DNA of 64,000 nt from positions 165,850,001-165,914,000 of the forward strand of contig OZ024741.1 of assembly GCA_964016885.1 (NCBI GenBank). The letters run 5' to 3'. Shown here piece after piece: positions 3,060 through 60,450 of the stretch. The stretch comes from Eledone cirrhosa. Taxonomy: Eukaryota. The notes beneath the pieces were generated by a model. The model worked only from the letters and a program-made list of their open reading frames with translations, did not search any database and was not told where the DNA came from. Made by a program: the position numbers and the translations under genes. Numbering within the stretch: position 1 is the first letter of the stretch; each line of letters begins with the position of its first letter.

Positions 3060-4309
3060 ATGAATAATTTTGAACCTCCAGATTTGTGGAAGAGACATGG
3101 AGTTCTTTTTGGAATCCGCGTCAGGAGAACAAATAAGGAAATTTCAGACTTTCTCAGCATCAGCAGGAGAATGGTGGAAAAGGTCACCAAGTTGGAACGA
3201 AAAGTAGAGTGTGTATTAGTGTCATTATATGTATGAGTGTGAATTATATGTCATTATATGTAGGGCGGCGGTGGATTGGCAGTATCGGTAGAGGGTCGGA
3301 CGCCATGCTTTGACGCATAGAGTTACAGCCCTTGCCATTCTGAGTTCAAATTCCACCGAGGTTAACTTTGCCTTTCATCCTTATGGGGTCGATAAAATAA
3401 AGTACCAGTAATACACTATGTAATTGCTGGCCTTGTGTCAAATGAATTGGAAGATTCAGGATTCGACTAAGAAGATAGAGAGGAAAACACATGATCAACG
3501 ATCTGATGCCTTCAGAACACCCTAGTTTGTGGCTGAAGTTCAGGATATCATCAACAATGAACCTAGCAAGTCGATGCATGCCATTGCAAGGGAGGAAGGC
3601 GTGGATGAAAAGCTCATTAGGCTGGTGGTACATTCGCTACGTTTCATACAAGATGAGGAAAGGACAATTTCTGTCAAAGGCGATGCAAGAAAAGCGACTG
3701 AAGCATGCAAAGAAGCTGATCAACAAGTGGTGTTTCAAAAACTTCTGCCAAGACCAGAAGATCAACTCCCAGAACAACAGGTGGCTCGCTGTCTCATCCA
3801 AAGACGTGCCCAGAGTCATGCAGACAAAGTTTCCAGCGACAACATTGGTCTTAGGTGTCGTCAGCAGTCAAGGTGACGTCATGCCACCTCACTTCTTCCC
3901 TGAGGGCCTCAAGCTGAACACCGATGGCTACATCCGCGTTCTGAGTGAGGTAGTAAAGACCTAGATTGACCAGGTAGCTGCAGGTAGGCCGTACGTGTGG
4001 CAACAAAACTCAGCGCCCTGCCATACCAGCCGAAAGATCCAAGCCTGGCTGTCAGAGTACTTCGTCGACCACACTTCACCTGACATCTGGCCTCCCAGCT
4101 CGCCTGACTGCAACCCCCTCGACTTCTTTGTGTGGGGCGCAGTGGAACGAGACACCAACAGATCTAGCTGCAATACAAAAGACGATCTGAAGGCCAGGAT
4201 CACTAGTGCCTTTAGGGGCCTAAGTCGGGAGACAGTGACGAAGGCCTGTAGCAGGTTCCGAGGCCACCTTGAGGCCGTCATCAAAGCCAATGGCGGGTTT
4301 ATCGAGTGA
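3060..4309 (+). pseudogene. maT DD37D transposase pseudogene
   Basis: ORF fragments 3054-3236, 3529-3876, 3491-3964 and 3995-4309 (KFPATTLVLGVVS, MPPHFF, SPDCNPLDFFVWG). Confidence 0.88.
3187..3442 (+). repeat. 256-bp inverted copy of 2261-2516 inserted in the transposase
   Basis: Reverse complement matches the SINE and its unique flank at 2261-2516. Confidence 0.9.
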
Positions 4310-4580: not shown

Positions 4581-5632
4581 AATTGTGAGATAAAGCCTTT
4601 ACTGTGAAAATACAATAGTATATATAGAGTAATGTAAATGTCATGTGAGATATTATGTGAGGTAAAGCCTTTACTGTGAAAATACAAAGGTATATATAGA
4701 GTAATGTAAATGTCATGTGAGATATTATGTGAGGTAAAGCCTTTACTGTGAAAATACAATGGTATATATAGAGTAATGTAAATGTCATGTGAGATATTAT
4801 GTGAGGTAAAGCCTTTACTGTGAAAATACAATGGTATATATAGAGTAATGTAAATGTCATGTGAGATATTATGTGAGGTAAAGCCTTTACTGTGAAAATA
4901 CAATGGTATTTATAGAGTAATGTAAATGTCATGTGAGATATTATGTGAGGTAAAGCCTTTACTGTGAAAATACAAAGGTATATATAGAGTAATGTAAATG
5001 TCATGTGACATATTATGTGAGGTAAAGCCTTTACTGTGAAAATACAATGGTATATATAGAGTAATGTAAATGTCATGTGACATATGTGAGGTAAAGCCTT
5101 TACTGTGGAAATACAATGGTATATATAGAGTAATGTAAATGTCATGTGAGATATTATGTGAGGTAAAGCCTTTACTGTGAAAATACAATGGTATATATAG
5201 AGTAATGTAAATGTCATGTGAGATATTATGTGAGGTAAAGCCTTTACTGTGAAAATACAAAGGTATATATAGAGTAATGTAAATGTCATGTGAGATATTA
5301 TGTGAGGTAAAGCCTTTACTGTGAAAATACAATGGTATATATAGAGTAATGTAAATGTAAATGTCATGTGAGATATTATGTGAGGTAAAGCCTTTACTGT
5401 GAAAATACAATGGTATATATAGAGTAATGTAAATGTCATGTGACATATTATGTGAGGTAAAGCCTTTACTGTGGAAATACAATGGTATTTATAGAGTAAT
5501 GTAAATGTCATGTGAGATATTATGTGAGGTAAAGCCTTTACTGTGAAAATACAATGGTATATATAGAGTAATGTAAATGTCATGTGACATATTATGTGAG
5601 ATAAAGCCTTTACTGTGAAAATACAATGGTAT
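4581..5632. repeat. 72-bp satellite, array 1 (about 14 units)
   Basis: Unit GTAATGTAAATGTCATGTGAGATATTATGTGAGGTAAAGCCTTTACTGTGAAAATACAATGGTATATATAGA. Confidence 0.97.
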
Positions 5633-7405: not shown

Positions 7406-9084
7406 ATAGAGTAATGTAAACGTCATGTGACATATTATGTGAGGTAAAGCCTTTACTGTGAAAATACAATGGTATATATAGAGTAATGTAAATGTCATGT
7501 GAGATATTATGTGAGGTAAAGCCTTTACTGTGAAAATACAATGGTATATATAGAGTAATGTAAATGTCATGTGAGATATTGTGAGGTAAAGCCTTTACTG
7601 TGAAAATACAATGGTATATATAGAGTAATGTAAATGTCATGTGAGATATTATGTGAGGTAAAGCCTTTACTGTGAAAATACAATGGTATATATAGAGTAA
7701 TGTAAATGTCATGTGAGATATTATGTGAGGTAAAGCCTTTACTGTGAAAATACAATGGTATATATAGAGTAATGTAAATGTCATGTGAGATATTATGTGA
7801 GGTAAATCCTTTACTGTGAAAATACAATGGTATATATAGAGTAATGTAAATGTCATGTGAGATATTATGTGAGGTAAAGCCTTTACTGTGAAAATACAAT
7901 GGTATATATAGAGTAATGTAAATGTCATGTGAGATATTATGTGAGGTAAAGCCTTTACTGTGAAAATACAAAGGTATATATAGAGTAATGTAAATGTCAT
8001 GTGAGATATTATGTGAGGTAAAGCCTTTACTGTGAAAATACAATGGTATATATAGAGTAATGTAAATGTCATGTGAGATATTATGTGAGGTAAAGCCTTT
8101 ACTGTGAAAATACAATGGTATATATAGAGTAATGTAAATGTCATGTGACATATTATGTGAGGTAAAGCCTTTACTGTGAAAATACAATAGTATTTATAGA
8201 GTAATGTAAATGTCATGTGAGATATTATGTGAGGTAAAGCCTTTACTGTGAAAATACAATGGTATATATAGAGTAATGTAAATGTCATGTGACATATTAT
8301 GTGAGGTAAAGCCTTTACTGTGAAAATACAATGGTATATATAGAGTAATGTAAATGTCATGTGACATATTATGTGAGGTAAAGCCTTTACTGTGAAAATA
8401 CAATGGTATATATAGAGTAATGTAAATGTCATGTAAGATATTATGTGAGGTAAAGCCTTTACTGTGAAAATACAATGGTATATATAGAGTAATGTAAATG
8501 TCATGTGAGATATTATGTGAGGTAAAGCCTTTACTGTGAAAATACAATGGTATATATAGAGTAATGTAAATGTCATGTGAGATATTATGTGAGGTAAAGC
8601 CTTTACTGTGAAAATACAATGGTATATATAGAGTAATGTAAATGTCATGTGAGATATTATGTGAGGTAAAGCCTTTACTGTGAAAATACAATGGTATATA
8701 TAGAGTAATGTAAATGTCATGTGAGATATTATGTGAGGTAAAGCCTTTACTGTGAAAATACAATGGTATATATAGAGTAATGTAAATGTCATGTGAGATA
8801 TTATGTGAGGTAAAGCCTTTACTGTGAAAATACAATGGTATATATAGAGTAATGTAAATGTCATGTGAGATATTATGTGAGGTAAAGCCTTTACTGTGAA
8901 AATACAATGGTATATATAGAGTAATGTAAATGTCATGTGAGATATTATGTGAGGTAAAGCCTTTACTGTGAAAATACAATGGTATATATAGAGTAATGTA
9001 AATGTCATGTGAGATATTATGTGAGGTAAAGCCTTTACTGTGAAAATACAATGGTATATATAGAGTAATGTAAATGCTAAAGGG
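7406..9084. repeat. 72-bp satellite, array 2 (about 23 units), ending in the MITE terminus
   Basis: Same unit; finishes GTAATGTAAATGCTAAAGGG. Confidence 0.97.
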
Positions 9085-20600: not shown

Positions 20601-20881
20601 TCAAGTTGCTGGCTGGACTCAGAAGTCACACTCATTCAGCGCATCGGTAGGAGTTCTCCTACATGGATATAAAGTAGTGGCCGTACTCGAAAACGAGTTG
20701 GCAGCCACCATGTATCAACCTAATATATTCCTTCCATATACTGTACCAATTGTGTTGTTATTTTTGTTTACCTTTTACATACATACATATACATACATAT
20801 ATATATCCAGGAGACTCCAACCGTGAAGGTTGCATTTTTTCAGGGTATGTCAATATTTATTTATAAAACTAATCTATATTA

Positions 20882-20947
20882 TATTTTATTTGATGAAAGT
20901 GCACCATAATCTGCCTTGGTGGCCCTTGAAATATGTATAATGAAATA
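20882..20947 (+). ncRNA. Hammerhead motif, family A, with C3-to-T core change
   Basis: TATTTTAT-TTGATGA-stem II-GAAA-TATGTA-TA-ATGAAATA. Confidence 0.7.
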
Positions 20948-20985
20948 AATATGGTTTTATAAATATAGTTTCCATTTGTTAATAT

Positions 20986-21018
<33 letters not shown>

Positions 21019-30930: not shown

Positions 30931-31040
30931 TCAAGCAACTCGGATATTTCAACATGTTCTATAGGTAAATCAGTTATATATATTATACCTATAGGATGTT
31001 GATTAAATATAACTTTACCACAGGCATATATATATATATA

Positions 31041-31118
31041 AGTATTAATAAAATAGATGTTATTTTGATCAATTACAGATCATCTATTGATCAAAAGAAC
31101 ATCTATTTTATTAATACT
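31041..31118. repeat. Palindrome (33-bp arms) next to (TA)n
   Basis: AGTATTAATAAAATAGATGTT...AACATCTATTTTATTAATACT; TTGAGTGC motif downstream. Confidence 0.8.
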
Positions 31119-31412
31119 CATATTAATAACTCCTGAAAATTATTTTTTCGGTTGAGTGCTTCCAATCTACTGTAAAAATCATTCTTTGACATAATTCATT
31201 GAATATTGTTTAACAATTTAATACTTATATATATATATATATATATTTATATCATATATATTGTATTTAAAAATTTTATTTGAATGAAAATATAAACACA
31301 AATAATAAATACAATTAATTATAGCTAGGAACTTTATAAATATAATACACAAAAATATATAATCAAAGCGACAGGACAAAAACCATTGGTGTGCTTTTTT
31401 TCTCTAGCTTTG

Positions 31413-31589: not shown

Positions 31590-31852
31590 AATAATAAGTA
31601 TGGACGAGGTGTCAAATTTTCATTCCGTTTAATCAAGTGTGATGCGCGTTTCGCGACTGATCAGCTCAAGGTTCGATCTCTATCGATCGGGCCCGACTCT
31701 GGAATGAAAAGCTCACCAAACTTCATTAAGCTGATGAGCTTTTGATTCCAGAGTTGGGCCCGATCGATAGAGATCGAACCTTGACCTGATCAATTGCGCG
31801 TCTCACCTGAATAAGTGTAATGAATATTTGACACTTCATCCATATTATTATT
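31590..31852. repeat. Palindrome (about 120-bp arms) of a PLE-like repeat with CTGATGA at the apex
   Basis: Arms pair (GGGCCCGACTCTGGAAT/ATTCCAGAGTTGGGCCC); single copy at 34715-34850. Confidence 0.85.
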
Positions 31853-32905: not shown

Positions 32906-32936
<31 letters not shown>

Positions 32937-33284
32937 AAATTTAATATGGAAATGGCTTCTGCAGGACTAGAACTGTTTCATTCGAAGGGAATCATCAGGA
33001 AAGCCCTTTGTATGTATAAATTATATGAATAAGATCTCAACACAAATGCATGCTACCTAAGGTTTTAAACTACAACCAGCATAGGACATAGATATTCTAT
33101 GTCTGCTAGTTTAGTTATCATTGGGCTTTGGCTCTGGACATTGCATAGAGCACATTTTTTTTCTTAATCTATTTCTTTGGAAACTTTTGACTATATATAT
33201 ATGTGTGTGTGTGTATATATATACATGTATGTATGTATGTATATATATATAGGTATATGTATGTGTATATATATAGGCATATGT

Positions 33285-33734: not shown

Positions 33735-33974
33735 ATATGTATATAACGAAGGAGTTGTGGTAAGGAACCAGATGGACCATAATGCACCAGAGTACTCAAT
33801 ACTTAGGGTAGTAGAGTGAGTATATATATATATATATAATCATCATCATTTAATGCCTGCTTTCCCTGCTTGCAACTGTTGAAAAAAAAATATATATATA
33901 TAATTTCAACCCTTGCTATCAGGGAAAGCGGACATTAAATGATGATGATAGTATAGGAGGTGACATAAAACCTC

Positions 33975-34270
33975 ATGAACTTAAAGATATACTCCTCAAC
34001 AAATCTCATTCACCATCTTTGATAGATAATGGAATACAACAAACCAAGGCAATTGATGTTTGGATATTAAGACAAACAAAAGATAATAAATGTCTACCAG
34101 AATTGAAAGTGTTAGCATATGCCTCTACTCAGAATACTAGAAACAATGACGCTTACAATATTAATTTTCAAAATATACTGATACTGAAGAAGGTTGAATC
34201 AATTTTTATACATGCATACTATTATAAAAAATAAAAGACAGCCAAAATCACTGAAAAGAATATTAACCAA
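33975..34270 (+). pseudogene. Penelope-like element RT thumb/linker remnant
   Basis: ELKDILLNKSHSPSLIDNGI...AYASTQNTRNNDAYNI...KRQPKSLKRILT. Confidence 0.65.
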
Positions 34271-34965
34271 TACCAATATCAATATCAAATTATGTTAACC
34301 GTTTTAATACCAACCTAGCCAAAACCAGCTCTGATTTTATGAACCAAAACTATCCATTACCAAATACAGGAGGCACTTGAAGATGGCCAGTGAGCATCAC
34401 AGCTAAAAATGTTATGATTATAACCAACATGAGGACACTAGTCTGACTATATTAGTATATAATAAACATTTTCATCTCATACATATAAATTAATAATTGT
34501 TTCTACCTTCACCTTTGGCACAAGGCCAGTAATTTGGGGGAGAGGGAAAAGTTGATTAAATCGACCCCAGTACGTTACTGGTGCCTTATTTTATCGACCC
34601 CCGTAAGGATGAAAGGCAAAGGTAACTTCGGCAGGATTTGAACTCAGACCGTAAAGGGCCGTAACTCTAAGCTGCAAGGCATGGTGTCTGACTCTCTACT
34701 AATACTACCAATAATTAATAGTATGTATGGATGAGGTGTCAAATTTTCATTGATTTTATTCAGGTGTGACGCGTGTTTCACAATGGATGAGCTCATGGTT
34801 CGATCCTATTGATTGGGCCCAACTCTGGAATCAAAAGCTCATCAGACTTCTGTTTGCTTAAATTATATGTATGTATATATATATATATATAACAAAGAGG
34901 GTGTGGTAAGATACCAGGTGGACCATAACGCACCAGAGTACTTGATACTGGGGATAGGGTGGCTA

Positions 34966-35090
34966 ATATGAAAAGATTCAGGACTCTGACAGCTGAGCTC
35001 CGGCCATTTCGAGAGCTAGATCCAAACTGTTAAGATCTAGCTGTCGAAACGGCCGGAGCTCAGCCGTTGGGGTCCTAAATCTTTTCATAT
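34966..35090. repeat. Palindrome mirroring a hammerhead 3' half (family B)
   Basis: Right arm AGCTGTC-GAAACGGC...GCCGTT-GGGGTC; centre at putative stem II. Confidence 0.8.
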
Positions 35091-36133: not shown

Positions 36134-36169
<36 letters not shown>

Positions 36170-36194
36170 TGTAATAAACATCATAAGATAATTA

Positions 36195-36253
36195 TTCGAT
36201 TTACCAGTAGTTTCTTGAAAGCAAACAAATCTGCTTTCAGTCATCAGAATGAA
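36195..36253 (-). ncRNA. Type I hammerhead ribozyme motif (family C)
   Basis: TTCATT-CTGATGA-C-TGAAAGCA...TGCTTTCA-A-GAAA-CTACTGG-TA-AATCGAA; lies between (TA)n tracts. Confidence 0.7.
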
Positions 36254-36306
36254 AAAATCCTGGTGTTTTTATTGAATGTGGATTTGAAAAACATATATAT
36301 ATTTTA

Positions 36307-40001: not shown

Positions 40002-40050
<49 letters not shown>

Positions 40051-40175
40051 CGAAGGAGATGTGGTAAGGAACCAGATGGACCATAACGCACGAGAGTATT
40101 CAAGTTAAGAAAAAACCGTCGAAACGGCTTGAGCTCTGCCGTCGGGGTCAGACTTTTTTCAATATATATATATAT

Positions 40176-40528
40176 ATATTGTTATACTTTGGGAGGGTCA
40201 TGTTGCCAATAAGAAACACACGCACCAGTCGTTTTCACTCCAATTTATTATAAATTAAATTATAAATTTAAAAATTTATAAATTTCCGGTTGGTTGGTTG
40301 GTTCCACAACCGGACGGTTGTTCATATATTGTCACTGAAGAAGTCACAGCATGTGTGACGAAAGAACTTTGACCATATATGAACAACCGTCCGGTTGTGG
40401 AACCAACCAACCAACCGGAAATTTATAAATTTTTAAATTTATATTTTAATTTATAATAAATTGGAGTGAAAGTAACTGACGCATGTGTTTCTTATTGGCA
40501 ACATGACCCTCCCAAAGTATAACAATAT
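40176..40528. repeat. Long palindrome (about 158-bp arms) capped by a hammerhead
   Basis: Arms nearly perfectly complementary; left end abuts (TA)n. Confidence 0.92.
40331..40373 (+). ncRNA. Type I hammerhead motif at the palindrome apex
   Basis: GTCA-CTGAAGA-A-GTCACA(GCATG)TGTGAC-GAAA-GAAC-TT-TGAC. Confidence 0.75.
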
Positions 40529-49148: not shown

Positions 49149-49340
49149 TTATAGCAGTTAAATTACATCAGTGATTGCAGGACCTGGAGTTTCATGCTTT
49201 AAGGGTTGTGATTAAATTATGCACACATCTCCAGGCTTTTGAGTCATTGATTCAGCTTTACGGCTGTAATATCCAGCGAATGTTCGGACCGTTAAGGTGT
49301 CATTTCCATGGGTATGTCATTATTTATAAAACAAATTTTG

Positions 49341-49405
49341 TATTTTATCTGATGAAAGCACACCAAGGTTGGCTTAGTCGCCCTTGAAATATATATAATA
49401 AAATA
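49341..49405 (+). ncRNA. Type I hammerhead motif, family A (stem II partly decayed)
   Basis: TATTTTAT-CTGATGA-...-GAAA-TATATA-TA-ATAAAATA. Confidence 0.72.
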
Positions 49406-49445
49406 TATATTGTTTTATAAATATAGTTTCAATTTATTATTATCT

Positions 49446-49516
<71 letters not shown>

Positions 49517-49519
<3 letters not shown>

Positions 49520-49622
49520 ATGTAATAAACAACATAAGATAATTATTTCATTTACCGGTGGTTTCTTGAAGACGAAACCACCGGTAAATGAAATATTTAT
49601 CTTATGTTGTTTATTACATAAC
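49517..49622. repeat. Palindrome mirroring the family C hammerhead 3' half
   Basis: TTTACCGGTGGTTTC-TTGAAGAC-GAAACCACCGGTAAA; left arm homologous to 36166-36219. Confidence 0.85.
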
Positions 49623-49690
49623 TAAAAAGCTCTGTAGCCTACATAGAGCACTCTCTTTTCCTTTACCTTTCCTGCGGAAATACTTCACAC

Positions 49691-49966: not shown

Positions 49967-50595
49967 GTAAACACAGAAAGAAAAGAATGTGTTGATGAGA
50001 CACAGAAAAAAAAAGGAGAAGACAACGGGGCGAGTATAAGAAAACGAAGAAGAAGGGAAAAGAGAAAAATGTGTGCTCACTTGTCAGCCAACCCAGTACC
50101 TTGTTTTTCATTGATTCACTAGAGCACTCTTTTTTTCTCTGAGACAAAGTGGGATTGTATGATAATACGTAAGAAACTATGATTTACATCTATGCCTACT
50201 TCCGCAAACACCTGGGTTGATCACTCAATTGTTTTAACACCATCAGTGAAAAATAGCCTATAACTCTAAATAGTGGAAGTTCATGCAAAGTACCGAGCCG
50301 AAAAAAAAAACAAACATCCACACTGAATGTAAAACTGCAAGTGTTGAAGCCACTGGAAACTGTCAAACCTGAAGCATTTCAGTGTAAATTGTTAAATTTG
50401 GTCACATCAAACACAGGGGTGTGGGGCAAATTTGGTCAATTTAGTTGTAGTGATTAGTTTAGCAGTTATTATCAAATATCAATCAAGATATATAAAAAAA
50501 AATTCGATATGCGATAAACATAACATTGTAGCGCATATACAAATATATGTGTTTTGATAGTTTGGGGAGGAGAAAAAAAAAATATATATATATAT

Positions 50596-50717
50596 AATAG
50601 GAAAATGTTCAAGACCCCGACGGCAGAGCTCAAGCAGTTTCGACGGCTATTCCTGTCCAGAAATAGCCGTCGAAACGGTTTGAGTTCTGCCGTCGGGATC
50701 TTGAACATTTACCTATT
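50596..50717. repeat. Palindrome mirroring a family B hammerhead 3' half
   Basis: GACGGCTATT...AATAGCCGTC-GAAACGGT...GCCGTC-GGGATC; family also at 33745, 34891, 40047, 57317. Confidence 0.85.
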
Positions 50718-50819
50718 ACCCACTCTACTACCCAAAGTATTGAGTACTCTGGTGCGTTATGGTCAGCCTGGTTCCTTACCACACTTCCTTCGTTTTATAT
50801 ATATATATATATATATATA

Positions 50820-51446
50820 TACAAAATATTAATAAATGAAAACTATATTTATAAAACCATATTTATTTCATTATACATATTTCAAGGACACCAAAGCAAA
50901 TTATGGTGCGCTTTCATCAGATAAAATATAATATAGATCAGTTTTATAAACAAATATTGACATACCCTTAAAATAATGCGACCATGTCTGTTGGAAGATC
51001 CCGGATAGTGGGGTTACTAATTTTATTATTGGTCTATTATGCAAATTAGTGTCGGAGAGGTTTAAATCCCATACATTGAAATTAAGCCGTTGGAATAGGA
51101 AAAAAAGAGAAGGAAAGAGCAAACCCAAAGAAGGAAAAGAAAAAGAAAAGGAATGGGAATTTTTTTCCTATTCCAACGGCTTAATTTCAATGTATGGGAT
51201 TTAAACCTCTCCGACACTAATTTGCATAATAGACCAATAATAAAATTAGTAACCCCACTATCCGGGAGCTTCCAACAGACATGGTCGCATTCTTTTAAGG
51301 GTATGTCAATATTTGTTTATAAAACTGATCTATATTATATTTTATCTGATGAAAGCGCACCATAATTTGCTTTGGTGTCCTTGAAATATGTATAATGAAA
51401 TAAATATGGTTTTATAAATATAGTTTCCATTTATGAATATATTGTA
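50820..51446. repeat. Palindrome (about 287-bp arms, purine spacer) with two divergent family A hammerheads
   Basis: 50820-51106 is the reverse complement of 51160-51446; explains twin ORFs 50901..51128(-) and 51153..51365(+). Confidence 0.95.
51338..51402 (+). ncRNA. Type I hammerhead ribozyme, family A (mirror copy about 50864-50928, minus)
   Basis: TATTTTAT-CTGATGA-AAG-C-GCACCA...TGGTGT-C-CTT-GAAA-TATGTA-TA-ATGAAATA. Confidence 0.82.
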
Positions 51447-52780
51447 TTTTTACTCCAAAAATTTGTTGAGTGCTTTATATCAGTTATAAAAATATTTGCT
51501 TGTTGTATCCCAACAAATTAAATATAACTTCTACACACACACATATATATATATATAAACAAGCTATCAAAATAAAAATTTCTGCGATGGCGACCCCATT
51601 GTTATTAGCAAAGGCGACAGGTTCAAGTGTTAAATTTTAGGAGGGAAGTATGTCGGCTATATACATGGACGATGAAATGCAACGCAACATGTCACTAAAC
51701 CAACTGATTATGCCAAAACCAAGAAGTTTCTTCAGGTATTCACAAGAAGAAATGAATAATTCAGAAGCAATCCCAGCAAGCAGAGGTTAGTTTTAAAACT
51801 TCAAACAATTGCATAACATACACAACATTATGTCTAGTGAAGTTGCTGGTGCAGACATCCATGCAGCAAGGATATTTCCCTGAATTTTGTGGAGTACCAT
51901 CAAGCGTGGTAACTAACCTACCAAAAATTAGCTTAGAGTTATGGTCCTTTACGTTCTGAGTTCAAATCCTGCCATGGTTAGCTTTGCCTTTCATTCTTAC
52001 GGGGTCGATAAAATAAAGCATCAATAATGCGCTGGGGTAATTGCTGGCCTTGTACCAAAAGTAGAAAGAATTAAATGTAGATGCAGCAGGTCTTTTCTGG
52101 AAAAGTATGTCATCCCACACTTTCATCATTAGAGAAGAAGAAGAAAAAAAAACACTTCTTGTTTCAAGGTCAAAACACACTGTTTACACTATTACTACAC
52201 GATATTTCAGGAGCCTTTAAGCTGACGCCAGAGTTCGTATTTCATTCAATAACACCACGACCAATGAAAGAAATATAAATACATCTGCCTGTCATTTAGA
52301 AATCAAACAAGATTACCTGGGTGACTGTAGAATTTTTCACACAGTATTTTTTATTTTTATACTCTTGTCAAACATTGAAAAAATTACAACAAAAAATATA
52401 AATGTTGGTGGCTGATAATACTTCAGACCAGAGGCATAAACTAGGGAAAACAGCGCCTATGGCAAGCAGTGAAATTGCATCTCTGTCCAGCACTGTATTT
52501 TCACCTATTGGCCTAACGATTTATATAAATAGTTTAATGATCCAGCCACCATAGTGTTCTCACTCATGATAATACTTCCATGTAGCATTGCTGTTTGCAT
52601 GTAAACATCATGCAATCTGCTTTTCCCTCTGAGGGAGAGACCCTTTGTAGCTAGCAGTGAAAGTAGCTCCAACCAATTCTTACTCTGACCTCTGAACTTT
52701 TAGAACACCCACCCCCACTGCTAATTTGGTCCCTTAGATAGCAGAAGCTGTCAATTATTACCTCTGAGCATTTGATACAC

Positions 52781-52812
<32 letters not shown>

Positions 52813-52897
52813 GCAAAAGTTTTATTTAAAATTGTTGGGTTACAACAAGTAAATATTTTATAACTGATATAAAGCACTCGACAAGTTTTTGGAGTAG

Positions 52898-53250
52898 ATA
52901 TACGATATTAAACAAATGGAAACTATATTTATAAAACCATATTTATTTCATTATACATATTTCAGGGATGCCATATTAAAAATATGGCATGCCTTCGTCA
53001 GATAAAATACAATATATAAACAGTTTTATAAATAATTTTGACGTACCATAAATATAAGCGACCAAGCCAGCTTCCTACCTTAATGGTCGCTTATATTTAT
53101 GGTACGTCAAAATTATTTATAAAACTGTTTATATATTGTATTTTATCTGACGAAGGCATGCCATATTTTTAATATGGTATCCCTGAAATATGTATAATGA
53201 AATAAATATGGTTTTATAAATATAGTTTCCATTTGTTTAATATCGTATAT
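52898..53250. repeat. Palindrome (about 166-bp arms) with two divergent family A hammerheads
   Basis: 52898-53063 pairs with 53083-53250. Confidence 0.95.
53139..53204 (+). ncRNA. Type I hammerhead ribozyme, family A (mirror copy about 52944-53009, minus)
   Basis: TATTTTAT-CTGACGA-AGG-C-ATGCCATATT(TTT)AATATGGTAT-C-CCT-GAAA-TATGTA-TA-ATGAAATA. Confidence 0.82.
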
Positions 53251-53636
53251 ATATAAATATATATATGTGTGTGTGTGTGTGTGAGTGTGTAAAATTGGTG
53301 TTTAAAACAAGACAAATGTTACTAACAAATGCTAAAATAAATAATTGTAATACTGCTGATAGAAATTGAAACCTGCCACACCTAACTTGATTATTCCCAA
53401 ATATTTTTCGAATATAGCTTTGTTTGTGTTAAGTACTAATTTTTGTCACTCTCCAACAAGGCTTATTTGACTTTAATAGAACTTGCTCCTAACCCAAGTG
53501 GGGCCCATGGCACGTGCCATGCTTCCAATACCCTAGTTACGCCTCTGCTTCAGACTACACCAAGATTATCGATACACTCAGACATGCGTTTCTGTCGAAG
53601 CTGTGTACCACCAAATACCATTTCCTTACTTTAACA

Positions 53637-55267: not shown

Positions 55268-55334
55268 GTTATTCCGGGTTGAATCGGAGGTAACCACAGT
55301 AAGTAAGGTACTCAATACATAGCAGAGTATAAAA

Positions 55335-55448
55335 GTTTTAATATAGATGAGATTCTACAGGACTAGAACTGTTTCATTCATTAGATTCCTGATGATTTCT
55401 AATGAATGAAACAGTTCTAGTCCTGTAGAATCTCATCTATATTAAAAC
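55335..55448. repeat. Perfect palindrome with CTGATGA in the apical loop
   Basis: GTTTCATTCATTAGA-TTCCTGATGATT-TCTAATGAATGAAAC; unmirrored relative at 32941-33005 (-). Confidence 0.9.
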
Positions 55449-55475
55449 TATATATATATATATATATATATGTTA

Positions 55476-56961: not shown

Positions 56962-57457
56962 TAAGTAGGCCTGAGAATAAGTGATCAATGTTGATTTATT
57001 TAACGCCGTTTATAAATTTATTAAAACAGTGTATCTTAATTAAAGAAACTTGTTTTCTAATTTTATGAGAACTGTAGAGCATAATATGTGACATCATATT
57101 ATGAGGTTATCTACAATAATTAATTGTATGGATGGTGCAATAACAAATTTTTAGATCGTCTGGCGATGTCTATCATCTTCATTTGCATCCGTATCACTTT
57201 CAAAAATAACCTATTAACCTGTTATTTATTTTTAAGCTATGTTATAATGACCCTGTATAGCGCTGTTACGTACATAAGTAGATTTTACGTATTACTCTGT
57301 ATATATATATATATATATAACAAAGGAATTGTGGTAAGGAACCAGATGGACCATAACGCACCAGAGTACTCAATACTTAGGGTAGTAGAGTGGGAAATAG
57401 GAAAAAGTATGACCCCGACGGCAGAGCTCAAGCCGTTTCGACGGCTATTTCTGGACT

Positions 57458-59728: not shown

Positions 59729-59778
<50 letters not shown>

Positions 59779-59893
59779 CTTTTATTAAGGCTAAATAGTG
59801 AGTCCTGTTACTCTGGAGTTTCACCTGCTTCTCACAGTGTGAAGCAGGTGAAACCCCAGAGTATTAAAACCTTACATCGGCCGTCAACTACAT

Positions 59894-59947
<54 letters not shown>

Positions 59948-59950
<3 letters not shown>

Positions 59951-60325
59951 CCAAGGTCCATAATAAACTCCATCATTAAAGGTCTATCTCTTAGGATTTC
60001 CAGACTTTCAACCTCCATAAGTACATTTAATGCACATGCGGATTAGCACAATGCGGCATTACGGAAAGCTGGTTATGGGGATAGAATAGAGTATATTCCT
60101 AAAACAACAGTTGATCGAGGATATCATCACCAACCGCGGAAACCCTCCATAACTAGGATGACAACATCATGCATCCACCGTCGTAAATTGATATAAATAT
60201 TAACACCACGAACATGAATTCGAGAGCTATTCCGGTTGAAACAATTGATAACTCAAATAAACTCTCTAGCTGGAAAAACGCCCGGAAGATCCCGAAATAG
60301 ATTATACCTATGGTATAATCCTTTT
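59948..60325 (+). pseudogene. Penelope-like element RT C-terminal remnant
   Basis: PRSIINSIIKGLSLRISRLSTS...AALRKAGY...IEY and RSRNRLYLWYNP (cf. RNIIWFNPP motif); starts in (TA)n. Confidence 0.75.
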
Positions 60326-60339
60326 TATTTTATTATTAT

Positions 60340-60450
60340 TCTCTGAAGATTCGTCGACGATAAACATATTGTGAGTGAGTGAATAGAAAAACATATACCT
60401 TTCCAGCTCTGGTAGATGATTAAACAATCGGTGATGAAACACGTGTTAGA
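60340..60450 (+). ncRNA. Type I hammerhead motif with a large stem II insert, directly 3' of the PLE remnant
   Basis: TCT-CTGAAGA-T-TCGTCGA...TCGGTGA-T-GAAA-CACGTG-TT-AGA. Confidence 0.65.

Follow-up and report, generated by a model that had tools for sequence, protein, structure and literature searches.

What are the two long palindromes, each with a pair of outward-facing hammerhead ribozymes, that lie close together in this DNA of Eledone cirrhosa, and how did they arise? The window (the whole stretch of 64,000 nucleotides that was analysed) is animal DNA rich in microsatellites and in remnants that we take to be RTE-like and Tc1-like. Two long arrays of a 72-bp unit (4584-5632 and 7406-9076; 97-98% identical) flank an RTE-like LINE remnant, and a 256-bp perfect inverted repeat (2261-2516/3187-3442) of presumably SINE-like sequence lies beside what we take to be a Tc1-like transposase remnant (3479-4309). 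The initial annotation placed the palindromes at 50820-51446 and 52898-53250. Both are present with one hammerhead in each arm, the coordinates having left out the tails at 51448-51532 and 52813-52899. In the window sequence, palindrome 1 consists of arms 50814-51106/51160-51452 (293 nt each, 7 mismatches, 53-nt spacer) and palindrome 2 of arms 52895-53064/53084-53253 (170 nt each, 2 mismatches, 19-nt spacer). The features of this sequence family, referred to as family A, are as follows.

50814..51106, minus strand: tail-less arm of palindrome 1, stopping at (TA)n (about 50797-50822)
50864-50928, minus strand: hammerhead of the palindrome 1 tail-less arm, by descriptor
51107..51159, minus strand: spacer of palindrome 1, pyrimidine-rich on the minus strand
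51160..51447, plus strand: tailed arm of palindrome 1, non-coding 3′ portion of the element
51316-25/51409-18 (within 51316..51418), plus strand: outer helix lengthening stem I, invariant
51338-51402, plus strand: hammerhead of the palindrome 1 tailed arm, minimal type I, by descriptor
51448..51532, plus strand: tail of palindrome 1, terminating at an (AC)n/(TA)n run
51452..51473, plus strand: tail hairpin of palindrome 1, UU bulge, 4 nt past the tail-less end
52813..52899, minus strand: tail of palindrome 2, terminating at (TA)n
52874..52895, minus strand: tail hairpin of palindrome 2, UC bulge
52900..53064, minus strand: tailed arm of palindrome 2, with its hammerhead at 52944-53009 (minus strand, by descriptor)
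53065..53083, plus strand: spacer of palindrome 2, aligning with the upstream sequence of other copies
53084..53253, plus strand: tail-less arm of palindrome 2, with its hammerhead at 53139-53204 (plus strand, by descriptor), stopping at (TA)n
49310..49447, plus strand: single tail-less family A copy, hammerhead 49339-49407 (plus strand, by descriptor) with stem II partly broken
20804..20992, plus strand: single tail-less family A copy flanked by (TA)n runs, hammerhead 20882-20947 (plus strand, by descriptor) with a C3U core change

In both palindromes, one arm halts at (TA)n and the other extends through a common tail of ~85 nt. A check for target-site duplications located both insertion ends in microsatellites. 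Palindrome 1 adjoins a copy of another family (family B), lying in the (TA)n where the tail of that copy ends, which indicates that insertions chain in microsatellites. The spacer of palindrome 2 aligns on the plus strand with the upstream sequence of other copies and hence is part of the tail-less arm; that of palindrome 1, judged by composition only, would be upstream 3′UTR of its tail-less arm. The two palindromes differ from each other at 22 of 142 sites, in agreement with the independent origin proposed for them.

A type I hammerhead descriptor identified six copies at four loci in the window, and hammerheads with a stem I of at least 6 bp numbered six, against one in total over 20 shuffles. 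The hammerhead at 51338-51402 comprises stem I (51338-45/51395-402), the core CUGAUGA (51346-52), stem II (51353-82) with a C·C mismatch, GAAA (51383-86) and a palindromic stem III, with cleavage predicted after 51394. The CUGANGA core, GAAA and UH, together with stems I and II, are intact in five of the six copies; the 20.9 kb copy carries the C3-to-U change along with an insertion in stem II. The hammerhead identity, the stem II sequences, their C·C mismatch and the 10-bp outer helix were all found as first described. The short palindromic helix III (AUAUGUAU or AUAUAUAU) can pair with itself, which is predicted to permit dimer folding, and G51390A in the stem III region of the tailed-arm hammerhead is common in reads. 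All six arms folded better than shuffles (z −2.5 to −4.7). The G10.1-C11.1 pair and the extra base after position 9 that are typical of PLE (Penelope-like element) hammerheads are absent from both palindromes, which have A-U and no extra base, and a third hammerhead subfamily seen in reads has G-C at 10.1-11.1. Rfam gave no hammerhead match in the window at the gathering threshold and no hammerhead family among 35 matches in E≤10 mode, mostly miRNA-type hairpin noise, and the family A sequence pattern gave 0 matches in viral and metagenome contigs.

Upstream of the hammerhead lie what we take to be octamer-like and CCAAT-like boxes (51220-51238) and a splice-donor-like site (51300-51306, at four of four loci), and the 5′ strand of the outer helix (51316-51325) is also presumably TATA-box-like. 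These could possibly represent a pLTR promoter and an intron. The idea of an intron, raised by the GT donor-like site near 51301 at all four loci, found no support in other families.

The changes in the paired regions had been regarded as direct evidence of selection on RNA structure. In the alignment of the six copies, pairing holds in 97.6% of cells, and both sides are changed in 4 of 9 stem II pairs, a number also reached by 85 of 500 shuffles; the six rows represent only four independent sequences, the two arms of one palindrome not being independent. From these loci alone the claim was therefore overstated, and genome-wide reads add support to it. The differences between the two palindromes fall on 6 of 70 paired sites, 0 of 12 core sites and 16 of 61 other sites, and the stem II changes between them are compensatory. 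Stem II keeps its pairing in the palindromes, as claimed, whereas the 49.3 kb copy breaks three of nine pairs. The G/A variation of stem I is present, with 49400 as the variant base in place of 49398, which is the motif start. The outer helix is kept at all four loci but, being invariant at 10 of 10 pairs, is uninformative on covariation.

For the genome-wide comparison, reads were mapped to 51107-51900 at 80% likeness, with the spacer (51107-51163) skipped as repeat. None of the 40 variants listed (35 further ones exist) falls within the 12 core positions, and those listed in paired hammerhead positions either keep the pair or are matching partner changes of the palindrome 2 type, the table being unphased. 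The stem II type of palindrome 2 constitutes a large subfamily as judged from loose read ends, and read sets X1, X12 and X6 contain a further, third type of stem II, whose outer stem is GGG/CCC and which retains the C·C. In X12 (RAD), where thousands of reads start at 51366-51378, inside the stem II belonging to the second subfamily and apparently at a restriction site, depth is biased toward that subfamily. The hammerhead structure is conserved in active lineages, and the copies at 49.3 kb and 20.9 kb are decaying. Selection acted on active master elements and not on these insertions, two of which already bear pair-breaking or core changes.

The intact cores in both arms of both palindromes, along with the covarying stem II, could suggest that the palindromes are selected double-ribozyme units releasing the RNA between two outward-facing hammerheads. 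This is highly improbable: the cores lie on opposite strands, spacer and arm lengths vary between loci, and single and decayed copies are equally common. Read-through RNA of the palindromes is predicted to fold with −256 and −456 kcal/mol (−28 for a single arm), with 90-95% of it paired as a single hairpin. Owing to the opposite orientation of the cores and this predicted fold, the ribozymes in the palindromes are likely inert, and the palindromes may be regarded as insertion by-products and not functional double ribozymes.

The abundance of family A was evaluated with read set X1, of which 6426 contigs mapped to 51107-51900. The summed depth, which is not a copy number and was taken only as a sign of very high copy and steep 5′ truncation, is ~7 on the unique flank and 2-3 million over the hammerhead (51377-51430), and upstream it falls to 138 thousand (51269-95) and then 1.7 thousand (51161-87). 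The (TA)n sequence into which the loose ends at 51432-51447 lead confirms the second, tail-less 3′ end genome-wide. The 5′ truncation with an inverted truncated copy and the tail (~85 nt) at one end only agree with the PLE architecture in print, i.e., an inverted 5′-truncated copy and a tail at one end (PMC8557442, PMC3846280), and the link to PLEs suggested in the initial annotation is upheld. For PLEs, the sections of PMC8557442 covered give 30-40 nt, less than the tail length found here. Opposite-strand pairs of minimal hammerheads 100-700 bp apart have been attributed to truncated PLEs (PMC4209133). Like the metazoan PLE hammerheads in the portion of that paper covered, those of family A are minimal type I with a long helix II, a short palindromic helix III and covarying families; they differ in having A10.1-U11.1 in place of G-C in both palindromes, no extra base after A9, and a stem I extended by a long AU-rich helix (PMC4209133). 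Truncated PLE ends with hammerheads in opposite-strand pairs are a known kind, and the hairpin and the junction geometry are what the present analysis adds.

Published Hydra PLEs, among which one family is listed from Octopus bimaculoides, share with family A the (TA)n targets, a hammerhead in the 3′ region, 5′ truncation and the inverted 5′-truncated copy (PMC8557442, sections covered). Family A has another hammerhead variant than the listed Hydra hammerheads (A10.1-U11.1, U-A stem III), and no ORF was seen. By its hairpin motif and (TA)n target, the only two characters used, family A can be assigned to the Hydra clade with good confidence. A PLE RT/GIY-YIG ORF, which the initial annotation proposed to look for upstream, was absent: neither RT nor endonuclease homology was seen in the 240 nt upstream of the core in the family A copies, all of which are short. 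Reading the antisense arm as GIY-YIG-like gained neither Pfam nor tblastn support and was rejected. Two decayed ORF remnants, neither attached to family A, are present elsewhere in the window. One of them (59951-60375, plus strand) is Hydra-like with an internal deletion and is followed by a degenerate hammerhead; its part 59951-60118 was matched by 11 of 27 queries (best E 1.6e-4). The other (33932-34480, plus strand) is an RT thumb/linker remnant, which we take from its motifs to be Neptune-like, followed by a degenerate hammerhead-like stretch (E 6e-23 for 33932-34295). Homolog searches with the two remnants found nothing.

The 240 nt that are free of ORF homology, along with the more than 1000-fold drop in depth towards 51161, could also mean that family A derives from a PLE but is non-autonomous (retrozyme- or SINE-like), with no ORF of its own, and that it borrows a Hydra RT and inserts by the same mechanism; animal retrozymes are known to derive from pLTRs (bioRxiv 10.64898/2026.07.22.740005). 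We regard this as possible, though rather doubtful. Hydra 3′UTRs can be long and pyrimidine-rich, as in Hydra-1_Crog (PMC8557442, supplement), so that 240 nt without an ORF are expected for truncated copies, and some copies still extend to the 5′ limit of the tested stretch. Tandem retrozyme-like monomers, also proposed earlier as a check and a feature of non-LTR retrozymes, were found head-to-tail at none of the four window loci.

The tail common to both palindromes opens with a bulged hairpin of the form RCUC-[variable stem]-2-nt bulge-GAGY-RC. This hairpin was found in six sequence-unrelated families of the window (A-F) and in a probable seventh at 33131. Families B-F are hammerhead-bearing PLE ends with the same two 3′ ends as family A, and, as in both palindromes, the tail is on one arm only. 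Their positions in the window, by group, are:

50595-50797, 57313-57456, 34885-35090, 40043-40160 and 33740-33822: PLE ends of the first group
49517-49690 and 36164-36290: PLE ends of the next group
55270-55449 and 32935-33040: PLE ends of a further group
1034-1290 and 59770-59900: PLE ends of the group after it
31036-31225: PLE end of the last group

A descriptor of the hairpin, drawn from the window's own copies, gave 10 matches in the window as against 0.9 by chance (maximum 4 in 40 shuffles), and each of the 10 is followed by a microsatellite at 34-66 nt (a range set afterwards; background 0.13 per match). Tail-less arms end 0-6 nt before the hairpin in seven of seven window palindromes. 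Among 14 distinct types, pairing at the three inner-stem pairs adjoining the bulge is kept in 36 of 42 cells; the shuffle mean is 23.3, and none of 20,000 shuffles, in which relatedness is ignored, reaches this value. The first inner pair is U-A in eight types and C-G in six, with either G-C or A-U as the outer pair. Single tails as a whole fold no better than shuffles (z −2.0 to +0.4). Rfam at the gathering threshold gave neither a hammerhead nor a tail-hairpin family in the window or in six loci of the record G001 described below.

At 80 Neptune-like PLE loci, hammerheads are common, including GAAAUAU types like those of family A, and the hairpin follows none of them; it is hence not general to PLEs. 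By eye, three of the six Hydra consensi of the PMC8557442 supplement contain it: in Hydra-2_Amil and Hydra-2_Ajap it comes behind the hammerhead, and Hydra-1_Ajap begins with it. Imperfect versions are seen in Hydra-1_Crog, and Hydra-1_Amil and Hydra-1_Obim gave no match (PMC8557442, supplement, by eye). A hairpin compatible with the descriptor also occurs in the 3′ region of the Naiad consensus preceding Naiad_Obim in the same supplement; as a single case, this could be chance. The Hydra section of PMC8557442 does not mention a tail hairpin, and no description was found in the literature within the scope of the search, which excluded Repbase and most subscription papers. The hairpin therefore appears to be an undescribed cis-motif, which likely tells the element's enzyme where copying starts.

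A combined pattern of the hammerhead 3′ half and the hairpin matched 57 loci in genome contigs and 3 in viral contigs. The CUGANGA core, which was not part of the search pattern, is present at 6 of these 60 matches, all in record G001, and the 54 matches lacking an upstream core were treated as chance. G001 (loci L084, L093, L100, L120, L130, L132 and L141-L180) is a 12-Mb record of a prokaryote collection that is full of animal retrotransposons; one of its families is near-identical by eye to Hydra-2_Amil, and hence the bin appears to be contaminated with coral-like host DNA. At L084 and L130, a Hydra-type ORF end, hammerhead, hairpin and (TA)n follow in sequence. The Hydra clade is marked by RWK, DKT and CxCX5C motifs and by the lack of CCHH; the 27 ORF pieces of G001, mostly 3′ fragments, contain CxCX5C in 17 cases, DKT in 3 and RWK in none. 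Two patterns using the hammerhead only gave 16 and 24 places in G001. Among these 40 places, the hairpin comes next in 15, and 22 end in a microsatellite ahead of the hairpin position (16 by script, 6 by eye); two of the others form a tail-to-tail joint and one fits neither class. In eight families with both forms, the tail-less end lies 3-6 nt before the hairpin (by eye). The tail-to-tail inverted joint of L157/L158 (G001 C3:1882-2049) breaks exactly at the bulge of the tail hairpin, and the window piece 40043-40103 likewise starts at the hairpin bulge.

The long near-perfect inverted repeats at TA-rich sites might be taken for MITE/foldback DNA transposons or assembly artefacts, and no centre-spanning read was obtained (51107-51163 was skipped as repeat, and palindrome 2 lies outside the mapped stretch). 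We give this scarcely any weight, considering the asymmetric arms with their 7 and 2 mismatches, the variable inner truncation, the existence of single-arm copies and the G001 loci at which Hydra ORFs adjoin this same geometry.

The ownership of the spacer was compared among 16 head-to-head pairs from the window and G001: it belongs to the tail-less arm in 12, to the tailed arm in 2, and is undecided in 2. Of the window pairs, five have the spacer on the tail-less arm as judged against other copies, and palindrome 1 has it there on composition only; in one pair it belongs to the tailed arm (about 3 nt), and two pairs are undecided. Seven tailed/tail-less pairs of G001, two further rows having been dropped (one of another family, one beyond a microsatellite), assign it to the tail-less arm in six and to the tailed arm in one (about 6 nt). 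The longer arm is thus commonly the one without a tail, and since a single cDNA folding back cannot copy an absent tail, two target-primed cDNAs, one from each side of a putatively protein-bound hairpin, are suggested. At 40043-40160, the tailed piece begins within the hairpin and does not overlap the other arm, and the overlap at the L180 joint is only about 12 nt. The piece at 32935-33185 was dropped as a non-overlapping joint on account of a degenerate palindrome at 33066-33115. Four G001 junctions compared by eye with single copies show 4-9 nt of microhomology, one of them with a 17-nt fold-back (L145). Opposite-strand joints in reads (9 among 15 listed) were not used as proof, as internal helices or library chimeras are possible.

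Inversions of PLEs could also arise from a single cDNA by self-priming or fold-back, e.g., on an antisense template (PMC3846280, as far as covered), with the tail removed or added during endonuclease resolution. Several centres within hammerhead stems, the fold-back at L145 and the palindrome at 40176-40528, in which a hammerhead core serves as the spacer and stem I continues into arms of ~160 bp, accord with such an origin; this palindrome and that at 31590-31852, both of other families, have no tail hairpin and fit plain fold-back. For the tailed pairs it is unlikely, given the spacer-owning, tail-less longer arm in 12 of 16 pairs, the absent or ~12-nt overlap at 40043-40160 and L180, and the two start sites on both strands observed in vitro (PMC11167929). 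Hence, the palindromes are probably dead 5′-truncated insertions of a high-copy PLE, itself probably of the Hydra clade, that were twin-primed in (TA)n at the hairpin.

A sequence of events can be proposed on this basis. An RT-GIY-YIG protein would bind the hairpin in the element RNA and nick both strands of a (TA)n target. The first cDNA would begin at the 5′ foot of the hairpin, giving the tail-less arm, and would usually extend further upstream; the second would begin 34-66 nt past the hairpin, giving the tailed arm. Microhomology of 4-9 nt would join the truncated cDNAs, in some cases following a short fold-back, and where the cDNAs overlap a palindrome with two outward-facing hammerheads would result. 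The hammerhead itself may be active only in the tandem precursor RNA of active copies, as a dimer formed via the palindromic stem III.

Twin priming is known from L1, where a second target-primed cDNA, joined by microhomology, produces a 5′ inversion; in the present case the start sites are both fixed, and the cDNAs frequently overlap, giving palindromes. For PAc, a Poseidon element of Anolis, in vitro work showed cutting and extension of both target strands and two internal RT start sites that bound the tail; insertion in vitro did not need the hammerhead (PMC11167929). PAc thus shares with the present elements the two start sites delimiting the tail, the cutting of both strands and AT-rich targets. 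It differs in belonging to another clade and in initiating in a stem-loop that is AC-rich and part of the ORF, and the portion covered reports neither a cross-family motif nor inverted insertions (PMC11167929). The Penelope elements of Adineta vaga share the inverted pLTR, a tail (31 bp) at one end and palindromes at head-to-head junctions; their inversions were explained by self-priming on an antisense template (PMC3846280, sections covered), whereas the arm asymmetry seen here favors two primed cDNAs.

In O. vulgaris, 190 PLE families account for 6.83% of the genome (PMC13282606, supplement), and PMC8557442 calls the origin of PLE tails and inverted repeats an open question. With a slight leaning in its favor, we propose that Hydra-clade PLEs of molluscs, cnidarians and echinoderms share a hairpin that docks the RT and fixes both start sites, twin priming then yielding tails, inversions and palindromes. 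The asymmetry of the arms distinguishes between twin priming and the self-priming model in print, and an RNA element of ~25 nt that covaries and lies at a fixed distance from both 3′ ends offers a concrete target for mutation in vitro. The hairpin also marks ORF-less Hydra remnants (six to seven families in 64 kb) that would otherwise be unclassified or called MITEs. PLE RTs are the closest kin of telomerase RT, and a hairpin that positions the template would bear on RNA recognition by the PLE/telomerase RT family of enzymes.
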